NCBI GenBank assembly: GCA_020137815.1
Contig: CM035350.1
Coordinates: forward strand, 5,642,001 to 5,706,000
Length of the DNA: 64,000 nt
Direction of reading: 5' to 3'
Source of the DNA: Hormiphora californensis
Taxonomy: Eukaryota > Animalia > Ctenophora
Positions 32,544-64,000 of this stretch are shown piece by piece. Made by a program: the position numbers and the translations under genes. Under the pieces are notes generated by a model. It did not search any database, was not told the origin of the DNA, and saw only the letters and a list, made by a program, of their open reading frames with translations. Numbering within the stretch: position 1 is the stretch's first letter; the number at the start of each line of letters is the position of its first letter.

Positions 32544-35500
32544 TCAATTCCAGTTACCCTGTCCCGCTGCAGCTGGGTTGTTCTTCCTACTACTTTTCAC
32601 CTTCTTCACAATCGAATCGAGGAACTCCAATTCCGGTTCACTGATATCGAGAGCTCCACCGCCGCCGCCTCCACCTCTGCCCCCTTCATCCGCTTGCATT
32701 GGAGTCACATTCGATGTGGCTGAGGGTGTATTGTATTGGTATCCGGGCTGGGAACCATACCCCGTGGCGCCGTAGCCACCCTGCTGAAGGGGGGACACAG
32801 CGCTGGTTATTACACCACGGACGCGCCCCACCACACCCCGATATGAATCAATGAATTGTATAACTTCCCATGATAATAGACCAAATTAAATTAAAGGGTG
32901 TCCCCGAATAATTTGACATCCCCAGCCTTATCATTATAAGTTCAAATGACCACCCACCCCGGATATGTATAACTTACAAATGGTGGGTAATAACTGCTGC
33001 TCTCCTGACGATATCCACCAAAAGGTTTCATGCCCCGGTCACCGTACTCTGGCTCCCCAAACTTTTGCTTCTTCGCGGGGGGATCAGGGAGGGTAACGTT
33101 AATAGGAACGTCTTTCAGGAAATGCTTTTGCTGAAAATAGGATTGGGTTGATACTTGGTAGGGTAATTGATTATCTACATTAAATAAAACACACTGTACA
33201 CAAGGTGATTGTGGCGGTGATATATCAACGTATACTGCAGATCTCAATCAAAGTTGTAACCGTTCCTGGATATAACTTAGATAAGCTCTCTGCAGATCGG
33301 GGCAGTAACGGTGACCCACGATTTATCTGCTCCCTCATACCTTCAATACGATCTCTGCATCCTCTCCCTTCTCGAAGGTTATAAAAGCGAAACCCCGGTG
33401 AGGTTTGGGAATATACACGTCAGCGAGGGCCCCGTACGTCGAGAAATAATCGCTTAGATCCTTCTCATCGGTCCTGAGGGGAGTGTCATGATATTGAAAA
33501 TTGGACCGGGGCATCATCATCAAGCAAGGGAGAGTGGCGCGCACATGGCAAATGCTGACGGCGTCAGATTGCCATTTGCGCGTGCACCACCCACCCCGCA
33601 TCGTTGGTGGGAAGGAGGGAAGGGAGTCGTGGAGTCGTGTCACTCAACGGACTTGCTACTCAAATCGAATATTGGAAACTCGGAAATCGAAAGCTTGACA
33701 GCGAGTAAAGAGTACACTCACTCAAACACACACACATGTATCTCAAAAAACAAATTTGTTGTGATTTGACCCAAACAGTACAATGCCCCTTCTCCCAGCT
33801 AGTACACATTGTTACTAAAACACACCCCTGACACCCACATCACACTATGATTTGTTCTTTACCCTCGGGGGAGACGGCCGACAAACAGCTTCCGCTCTGG
33901 CTCAGTTCGCTTTGGAATTCGCACTTCACACTTTCGCCCGCTTATGGTGTGATAGGTGTCAGTGAGCACTTGCTTCGCAACATCATCACTCACAAAGCTT
34001 ACAAATCCAAACCCACGCGAATTGCCACCGTAGTCTTTCTTGATCTGGAGAGAGGGGTGAACACACGGGGTGTTAGCGGGATAGCTCTCACTCACATAGC
34101 GGCACATATATATGTATTAAAACACGCAGGGAGGAGAGAGAGATTTACCTCACAAGATTTGACCTCTCCAAAAGATTTAAAGTAATCCCGGACATCGTTC
34201 TCTGTTGCTTTGTAACTGAGCCCCAATATAATCAGATCTCCTATTTTATCGCTGCTGGATTTCTTGTTCTGAGGAGGGATTAGGAGGGATTAATTGGACA
34301 GTACAGACGGGATGGAAGGAAGAGAGAGAGAGAGAGAGAGAGAGAGAGAGAGAGAGAGAGAGAGAGAGAGAGAGAGAGAGAGAGAGAGAGAGAGAGTGAT
34401 TCCAAGCTTGGAATTTACATTTGATAGACAAAAAAAGACAAAGACCAAATTAAGAAAGTCAGAGAGAATAAAGTGAATCAATACATTTTGAAAACAAACA
34501 AACTAAACTCTCTCTCTCTCTCTCATGAAAGATACACCCAGGTCTCTCAACAAGCAGTGTCATGTGTTTATTTATTAATCCATCACATCACCCACACTTT
34601 TTGTTGTACTGTTGCGTGTCGTGTTGTGTCTTACAAAATGTTTGGGAGGGGCAGTTTATCAAATTCTAAGCTGACAAAATTTAGATTGCAAAACTTTGAT
34701 AAGGTAAGCTGCTCTTGTTGTTGTCCAATATTGTGTGGCTCACACCGTCATTTTATGGTTCGGTAAATCAAGTATATAACAACACCTCTCTAGGCAACTA
34801 TTCTCTTGCAGGTCCGGAAAGCAAGCCAGAAGGAAGGGGAGTTCTGGACTGACCCGAGTTTCCCACCAAATGAAGGATCATTGTGGGGAGATGGGAGACC
34901 CACTGTTGAAGATGTTACATGGATGCGTCTTAGGGTACAGTAGAAGAGATCATGAGTACTATCGACTTTCATTTTATAGAGCCTAAGGGCTAAGGGGACC
35001 CTGTCCCCTGATACTAACTCCCCGGTCCTCTCCAGGATATCAACCCTAAGGGGACTCTGATACAATCTCCCCTCTACAGGATATCAACCCTAAGGGGACC
35101 CTGATACAATCTCCCCTCTTCAGGATATCAACCCTAAGGGGACACTGATACAATCTCTCCTCTCCAGGATATCAACCCTAAGGGGACCCTGATACAATCT
35201 CCCCTCTTCAGGATATCAACCCTAAGGGGACCCTGATACAATCTCCCCTCTTCAGGATATCAACCCTAAGGGGACCCTGATACAATCTCCCCTTTTCAGT
35301 TTTCAGGATATCAACCCTAAGGGGACCCTGATATAATCTCCCCTCTTCAGGATATCAACCCTAAGGGGACCCTGATACAATCTCCCCTCTACAGGATATC
35401 AACCCTAAGGGGACCTTGATACAATCTCCCCTCTACAGGATATCAACCCTAAGGGGACCCTGATACAATCTCCCCTCTTCAGGATATCAACCCTAAGGGG

Positions 35501-63522: not shown

Positions 63523-64000
63523 CTGAGAGGGGAGGGGGTCAAGGCAGGAACTCAACTCTACCTGAGAGGGGAGGGGGGTCAAGGAAGGAACTCAACTCTA
63601 CCTGAGAGGGGAGGGAGGTCAAGGAAGGAACTCAACTCTACCTGAGAGGGGAGGGGGGTCAAGGAAGGAACTCAACTCTACCTGAGAGGGGAGGGAGGTC
63701 AAGGCAGGAACTCAACTCTACCTGAGAGGGGAGGGGGGTCAAGGCAGGAACTCAATTCTACCTGAGAGGGGAGGGGGTCAAGGCAGGAACTCAACTCTAC
63801 CTGAGAGGGGAGGGGGTCAAGGAAGGAACTCAACTCTACCTGAGAGGGGAGGGGGGTCAAGGCAGGAACTCAACTCTACCTGAGAGGGGAGGGAGGTCAA
63901 GGCAGGAACTCAACTCTACCTGAGAGGGGAGGGGGGTCAAGGCAGGAACTCAACTCTACCTGAGAGGGGAGGGGGTCAAGGCAGGAACTCAACTCTACCT
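63504..64000 (-). repeat. 39-40-bp minisatellite made of the DDHD intron acceptor and exon start
   Basis: Minus-strand unit ttgacc(c)ccctcccctctcag|GTAGAGTTGAGTTCCT(G/T)CC. One real junction plus at least 11 further copies, running off the window. Confidence 0.95.

Follow-up and report, generated by a model that had tools for sequence, protein, structure and literature searches.

In a 64,000-nucleotide stretch of the genome of the ctenophore Hormiphora californensis (contig CM035350.1, positions 5,642,001 to 5,706,000, hereafter the window), three genes each carry a head-to-tail minisatellite of 12 to 22 copies, formed by the 3' end of an intron and the beginning of the exon that follows. The genes are a calpain, an importin beta and a DDHD gene, and the three arrays lie within 29 kb of each other. 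Our analysis indicates that they are probably minisatellites of the "mirage" type, which likely arose through ordinary tandem duplication in place and are likely tolerated since the acceptor chosen in splicing is the last one, adjacent to the exon.

Architecture of the acceptor arrays

The arrays were detected with TRF and their units were then split at the acceptor AGs, while the exon models were built by coordinates and the families checked against Pfam, which confirms Peptidase_C2 for the calpain, TPR_IMB1 for importin beta and DDHD for the third gene. Split in this way, the units read, in order, an exon stub, a YTGAY-like motif, a C-rich tract and CAG. Their size ranges from 31 to 44 nt over the three arrays, inside the 10-160 bp of known mirages. 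The stubs are identical to the true exon start over 21 nt in calpain, 8 nt in importin beta and 19 nt in DDHD. The preliminary description of this DNA had claimed one architecture in three unrelated genes, with stubs of 8 to 21 nt, and the TRF calls, the unit split and the exact stubs all agree with it. There are 15 upstream CAGs in calpain, 22 in importin beta and at least 11-12 in DDHD, and their scores fall within or above the range of the true acceptors, according to a matrix trained on 43 acceptors of the window. As repeats, the arrays exceed what is expected by chance.

The calpain array extends over positions 35027-35728 of the forward strand (TRF period 44, 15.8 copies, 94% matches), at the acceptor of intron 2 (34935-35702). 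The true exon 3 (Peptidase_C2) follows directly after the last acceptor at 35703-35924 (+), and this junction agrees with P0122. The gene model comprises 12 exons and 515 aa, is free of stops, and matches P0122 at 87.6% over 169 aa. The best match of the exon, at 97%, is a EukProt model whose identifier begins with 'sb/', a prefix that we take to denote Pleurobrachia gene models. In 2 of the 14 full units, the identity to the exon extends for 26 nt, through the "branch motif", which in this array is probably derived from the exon. At the 5' edge of the array (34981-35002, +), exon-derived fragments are found upstream of the first AG. The RRM gene at 32543-34268 (-), assigned by Pfam RRM_1 and presumably TDP-43-like, is arranged head to head with the calpain gene, and a 10-nt duplication stands directly before its acceptor at 34269.

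The importin beta array occupies positions 54865-55661 (+), at the acceptor of intron 12 (54846-55661); TRF reports 54865-55651 with a period of 31-39 and about 22 copies, and the split gives units of 31-42 nt with 22 upstream copies. The true exon 13 (55662-55885, +), where Pfam places TPR_IMB1, is spliced to position 54845 in an RNA contig described below. The model has 14 exons and 874 aa, free of stops, with a match of 72.6% to P0004. The first acceptor of this array lacks a branch motif. The 5' edges of the calpain and importin arrays look rearranged after the first duplication. Intron 4 of the same gene holds a long inverted repeat at about 51040-52050, foldback or MITE-like, in which the ORFs at 51122-51442 and 51666-51986 mirror each other; the region at about 44300-44820 contains a similar inverted pair. 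An intronless gene (41971-43400, -), arranged head to head with importin beta, has a HELGH motif, by which it presumably resembles the CAAX prenyl protease Ste24.

The DDHD array lies on the reverse strand at 63504-64000 (-) and continues past the end of the window, with at least 12 copies of a 39-40-nt unit (TRF: period 40, 12.5 copies). The true exon after the last acceptor (63353-63522, -) has its best match in Mnemiopsis leidyi P0123, at 82% over the whole exon. Within the window, the model has 10 exons and 383 aa, free of stops, and matches the same protein at 58% over 260 columns; a 12-nt micro-exon at 60886-60897 (-) is required for its open frame.

Sequencing evidence for the arrays and comparison with a relative

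An array of near-identical units could in principle be an artefact, in which the assembler looped the ends of reads, and parts of the window do look low-quality: the regions at about 300-1800, 2900-4200 and 8950-11500 are homopolymer-rich and have the appearance of unpolished assembly. The window was compared with read contigs from 4 of 16 listed runs: X1, which may be the assembly's own sample, X5, from a different sample and study, X7, which is RNA, and X9, from a relative (organism B). Over one calpain unit, the X1 contig depth is 440-447 against 32.5 in the flank, that is 13.5-13.8x, or about 14x, where the assembly has about 16 copies, although depth is not copy number. With the same reservation, the X5 depth over the unit is 8724-13271 against 426 in the flank (20-31x). 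The absence of the array from the reads, which the preliminary description had named as a sign of artefact, is thus not what was found, and for calpain the artefact is largely refuted. Furthermore, the units carry distinct recurring variants, and X1 contig 2 spans 52433-52963 with 0 differences, thereby reproducing the two-copy site at 52755 discussed below. An assembly origin of the arrays is therefore scarcely credible.

In the relative, X9 gave no depth excess on the calpain unit. One X9 contig among the matches listed ceases to follow the window 11 nt short of the calpain acceptor, and its next 30 letters align to 34956-34983, in the 5' part of the intron (shuffle p = 0.0005), while alignment to the array units gives p = 0.60. 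From this contig we infer that in the relative the calpain intron is about 60 nt long and free of the array; since the contig runs from the 5' part of the intron straight to the acceptor, the calpain array would be lineage-specific.

Importin intron 11 contains, at about 54561-54640, a very high-copy short element; relative to the flank, its bin depth reaches about 1000x in both X1 and X5 and several hundredfold in X9. At about 21260-30564 (+) there is a very long, apparently intronless reading region, seemingly broken by frameshifts, which might reflect assembly error or a pseudogene; its final part is presumably GPCR-like, with cysteine repeats that resemble LDLa.

Stops and acceptor choice

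Every unit acceptor tested upstream of the last one leads to a premature stop, as the preliminary description had proposed: 15 of 15 in calpain, 22 of 22 in importin beta and 12 of 12 in DDHD, one of these last being cut by the window end. These counts omit one non-AG row in calpain and one AG outside the units in importin beta, both of which also give stops. Joined to the preceding exon, the frames are free of stops only through the last acceptor, so that only the most 3' copy continues into coding sequence, again as first described. In 21 of the 22 importin units and in all 12 DDHD units, the stop comes from the TGA within that unit's own branch-like motif.

Evidence on which acceptor is used comes from X7 contig 19, for importin beta only. 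This RNA contig covers 54129-54153, 54263-54471 and 54702-54845 with 9 differences in 378 letters, and has alleles in common with X1 and X5. It joins 54845 to 30 letters that are identical to the window from 55662 onward and depart from the unit sequence at base 9, and the last importin acceptor is therefore the one used. This is a single metatranscriptome contig, of depth 6.7, whose allele may be array-free, and rare or NMD-degraded forms are hidden in contigs. For calpain, X7 yielded 0 contigs, which does not argue for absence of the transcript. The earlier claim that correct splicing needs a last-acceptor or strict exon-definition rule holds to the extent that this junction uses the last acceptor, so that either a rule favoring the exon-adjacent site or masking by NMD must act.

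The strength of the acceptors was considered as a general reason for the use of the last copy and rejected. With the matrix from the 43 window acceptors, 13 of 15 upstream acceptors in calpain and 8 of 11 in DDHD score as high as the last one, so strength alone cannot be the general rule. In importin beta none of the 22 does, and there the last acceptor being the strongest is a simpler, local reason for its use.

Under the mirage reading, the last AG would win because it is the only one that precedes a full exon and a downstream donor, whereas each upstream AG would meet the branch motif and tract of the next unit after 18-25 nt; this is the distance at which the next unit's branch A is found downstream of each upstream AG. 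The U2/SF3 footprint lies upstream of the branch point. Occasional splicing to an upstream AG would bring in a stop, and the transcript would likely be cleared by NMD. The introns of the window are short (median 176 nt, n = 45, minimum 52 nt), which counts against an exon-side rule, since pairing across the intron would favor the first acceptor. Duplicated acceptors with truncated exon stubs were reportedly studied by Reed and Maniatis in 1986. In human reporters, the sequence between competing acceptors represses the intron-proximal site (PMC2095810).

The uniform stops could also be read as regulation, in which the arrays act as a copy-number-tunable NMD rheostat and more copies send more transcript to premature stops. 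Besides the stop at every upstream acceptor, often by a TGA of the same unit, this would be consistent with the calpain depth ratios, about 14x in X1 and 20-31x in X5, which suggest that copy number may differ between samples, depth not being equal to copy number. However, a non-triplet unit that bears a TGA reaches a stop within three units anyway, and the two cases in which the first unit already gives it have a chance of about 1 in 9. The three genes are unrelated, the relative appears to have the orthologous calpain intron without the array, and the sole RNA junction, from a steady-state importin contig, uses the last acceptor and shows no upstream use. Mirages are, in addition, reported to be silent (PMC3087553, PMC3902484). 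We find nothing that supports the rheostat put forward in the preliminary description, and we consider it very unlikely.

Stepwise removal of the arrays by recursive (ratchet) splicing seems to us more improbable still. This mechanism would need AG|GT, which is found at the DDHD unit junction (AG|GTAGAG) and in the duplicate of importin intron 7 (AG|GT), but the true DDHD exon begins with the same GT. The calpain junction (AG|GA) and that of importin intron 12 (AG|AA) cannot regenerate a donor, and among the arrays AG|GT occurs at the internal sites of DDHD only. Steps of 39-44 nt would also be shorter than the smallest intron of the window, of 52 nt.

Distribution of duplications in the window

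The preliminary description had named two-copy versions at 16761-16847 and 52755-52861, and both places are indeed duplicated. The first (16761-16847, +, TRF), in gene A2, repeats the branch motif, tract and AG but not an exon start; the second is an old, decayed two-copy version of acceptor and exon start in importin intron 7 that spans 52755-52830 (+), with a stub of about 26-30 nt. Duplications of the branch point that end before the AG are found at 52375-52445 (+) in importin intron 6, together with the C-tract, and as a 41-nt repeat at 61277-61359 (-, TRF) in a DDHD intron. More generally, 46 short tandem-duplication segments are scattered across the window, near donors, in intron interiors and in intergenic sequence. 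In one of them X5 lacks 27 nt, at 54215, so this duplication is polymorphic.

Genes A1 (4787-8137, +) and A2 (13631-17685, +) are paralogues of an unassigned family, near-identical in their first shared exon and at their 3' ends. Just before the same acceptor they carry different CTAAC-containing tandem repeats: a 12-nt repeat of 3.5 copies at 4738-4779 (+, TRF) in A1, and a 36-nt repeat of 3.6 copies at 14465-14592 (+, TRF), near the 3' end of intron 1, in A2.

A rival account is a dedicated process, in which mutation linked to splicing or transcription, by an R-loop or G-quadruplex (G4) on the C-rich tract or by RNA-templated repair, preferentially duplicates the segment from branch point to exon, and acceptors are true hotspots. 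The different repeats of A1 and A2 at one acceptor would fit it. We compared acceptors with donors and intron interiors, using the approximately 47 hand-annotated introns of the window; the models of gene A1 and, in part, of the TDP-43-like gene are not in open frame, which leaves a few of their intron ends uncertain. A repeat of the junction is present upstream of 3 of 47 acceptors and downstream of 0 of 46 donors (p = 0.24), which makes the case for an acceptor-specific class beyond chance weak. With composition controlled for, local duplication marks 8 of 40 acceptors, as compared with 2 of 39 donors (p = 0.087) and 12 of 134 interior windows (p = 0.086); this test skipped 6 short introns and, on account of the poly-C, missed the importin array. 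Raw thresholds give at best p = 0.02-0.03, for instance 8 of 40 acceptors against 1 of 39 donors at a score of at least 24 (p = 0.029), but they were picked after the fact, their counts include dinucleotide runs, and once the three arrays behind the finding are left out the values rise to p = 0.2-1.0. An acceptor lean is no more than plausible. That all junction-spanning arrays sit at acceptors, with one threshold at p = 0.03, leans toward a bias not expected from mutation alone.

The position of the unit boundaries adds little to this case. In the three arrays the boundary does fall within about 6 nt of the branch motif, as had been claimed, but geometry alone gives chances of 0.35, 0.54 and 0.41, with a product of about 0.08, and in the two-copy cases (16761 and 52755) the claim fails, the boundary lying about 9-11 nt from the motif. 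As for the tract, C4+ runs number 1.89 per 100 nt in the last 27 nt of introns and 0.26 near donors, where G4+ runs number 0.34. G4Hunter windows cover 65% of the importin array and 41% of the DDHD array over a background of 3.6%, but 0% of the calpain array. The G4 slippage suggested in the preliminary description was thus rejected as a general cause. RNA-templated repair meets a further difficulty, since the units contain intron sequence and spliced RNA cannot be the template. In amphioxus, mirages are described at both donors and acceptors (PMC3087553). The dedicated amplifier, with an enrichment of p = 0.09-0.24 that disappears without the three prompting arrays, is not borne out in the window, and we regard a true acceptor hotspot of this kind as unlikely.

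On the mirage reading, the arrays would have been born by slippage, or by duplication at microhomologies, at the C-rich 3' ends of introns, in a genome where short pieces of intron are duplicated throughout. The sites at 52755 and 16761 look like the two-copy seed stage, from which minisatellite turnover would expand some; growth may proceed by slippage or by unequal exchange, perhaps assisted by G4 in the importin and DDHD arrays. Selection would retain those duplications in which a branch-like motif persists in the last copy and the stub is not long enough to function as an exon.

Relation to known minisatellites

The preliminary description knew of no described system of this kind, but the published record contains at least two close counterparts, the mirages of amphioxus (PMC3087553, PMC3902484) and the VNTR of human F7 (PMC1557585). 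Amphioxus mirages are reported in Adh3, in the globins BflGb6 and BflGb9, and in troponin C and PGBD5, the last two in PMC3902484; their units of 10-160 bp span the intron/exon boundary and keep the splice signal, and their length differs between haplotypes while splicing is not disturbed (PMC3087553, PMC3902484). Somatic instability of the Adh3 mirage is also reported, by way of these citing papers (PMC3087553, PMC3902484). The arrays described here have in common with them the boundary-spanning unit, the kept splice signal and the occurrence in several genes of one genome, and the BflGb6 mirage, formed exactly by the 3' end of an intron and the 5' start of an exon, has the same architecture. 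They differ in their 12-22 copies, compared to 2-7 in the amphioxus globin and PGBD5 cases, and in lying, within the window, all at acceptors, whereas the amphioxus mirages occur at both boundaries. They also belong to a ctenophore, three of them within 29 kb and in very short introns. The original description of the Adh3 mirage is said to be that of Canestro et al. in 2002.

In human F7, a 37-bp VNTR in IVS7 contains the splice site in 5-9 copies, of which only the exon-adjacent one is used, although the pseudo-sites are functional (PMC1557585). This is the donor-side mirror of the acceptor arrays. The 5'-to-3' scanning proposed by its authors (PMC1557585) would, for acceptors, pick the first copy, and the importin RNA shows the opposite. 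The model of Rogers, in which introns are gained by tandem duplication across AG|GT (PMC3265369), shares with our arrays the local duplication across a splice-signal motif. Unlike in that model, no new intron has arisen here: the relative appears to have the same calpain intron free of the array, and two of the three array junctions are not AG|GT. The G4-prone human minisatellite CEB1 (PMC2673046), with units of about 40 nt rich in C/G runs, resembles the G4-prone importin and DDHD arrays, and differs from the calpain array, which has no G4 signal.

The Hormiphora genome paper gives 13% of tandem repeats, and splice-site arrays are not mentioned in the part of its text that was available. Our literature search found no report of mirage minisatellites in ctenophores. 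The present arrays thus extend to a ctenophore a phenomenon that is itself already described, and they show a kind of locus that can mislead gene prediction and read mapping.

A stronger version of the finding can be formulated, in which mirage arrays in this ctenophore form almost only at acceptors, the branch point and C-tract being a real duplication hotspot, and in which an animal with compact introns skips 11-22 equally strong acceptors by a strict last-acceptor rule. We offer it tentatively, as a possibility that we rather doubt. Should the last-acceptor rule persist when NMD is blocked, the loci would be natural reporters of exon-side acceptor choice in a short-intron animal, where the use of the first acceptor would be expected. 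If the stronger version as a whole were true, natural length alleles would provide a ready test of 3' splice-site choice in a very early-branching animal lineage.
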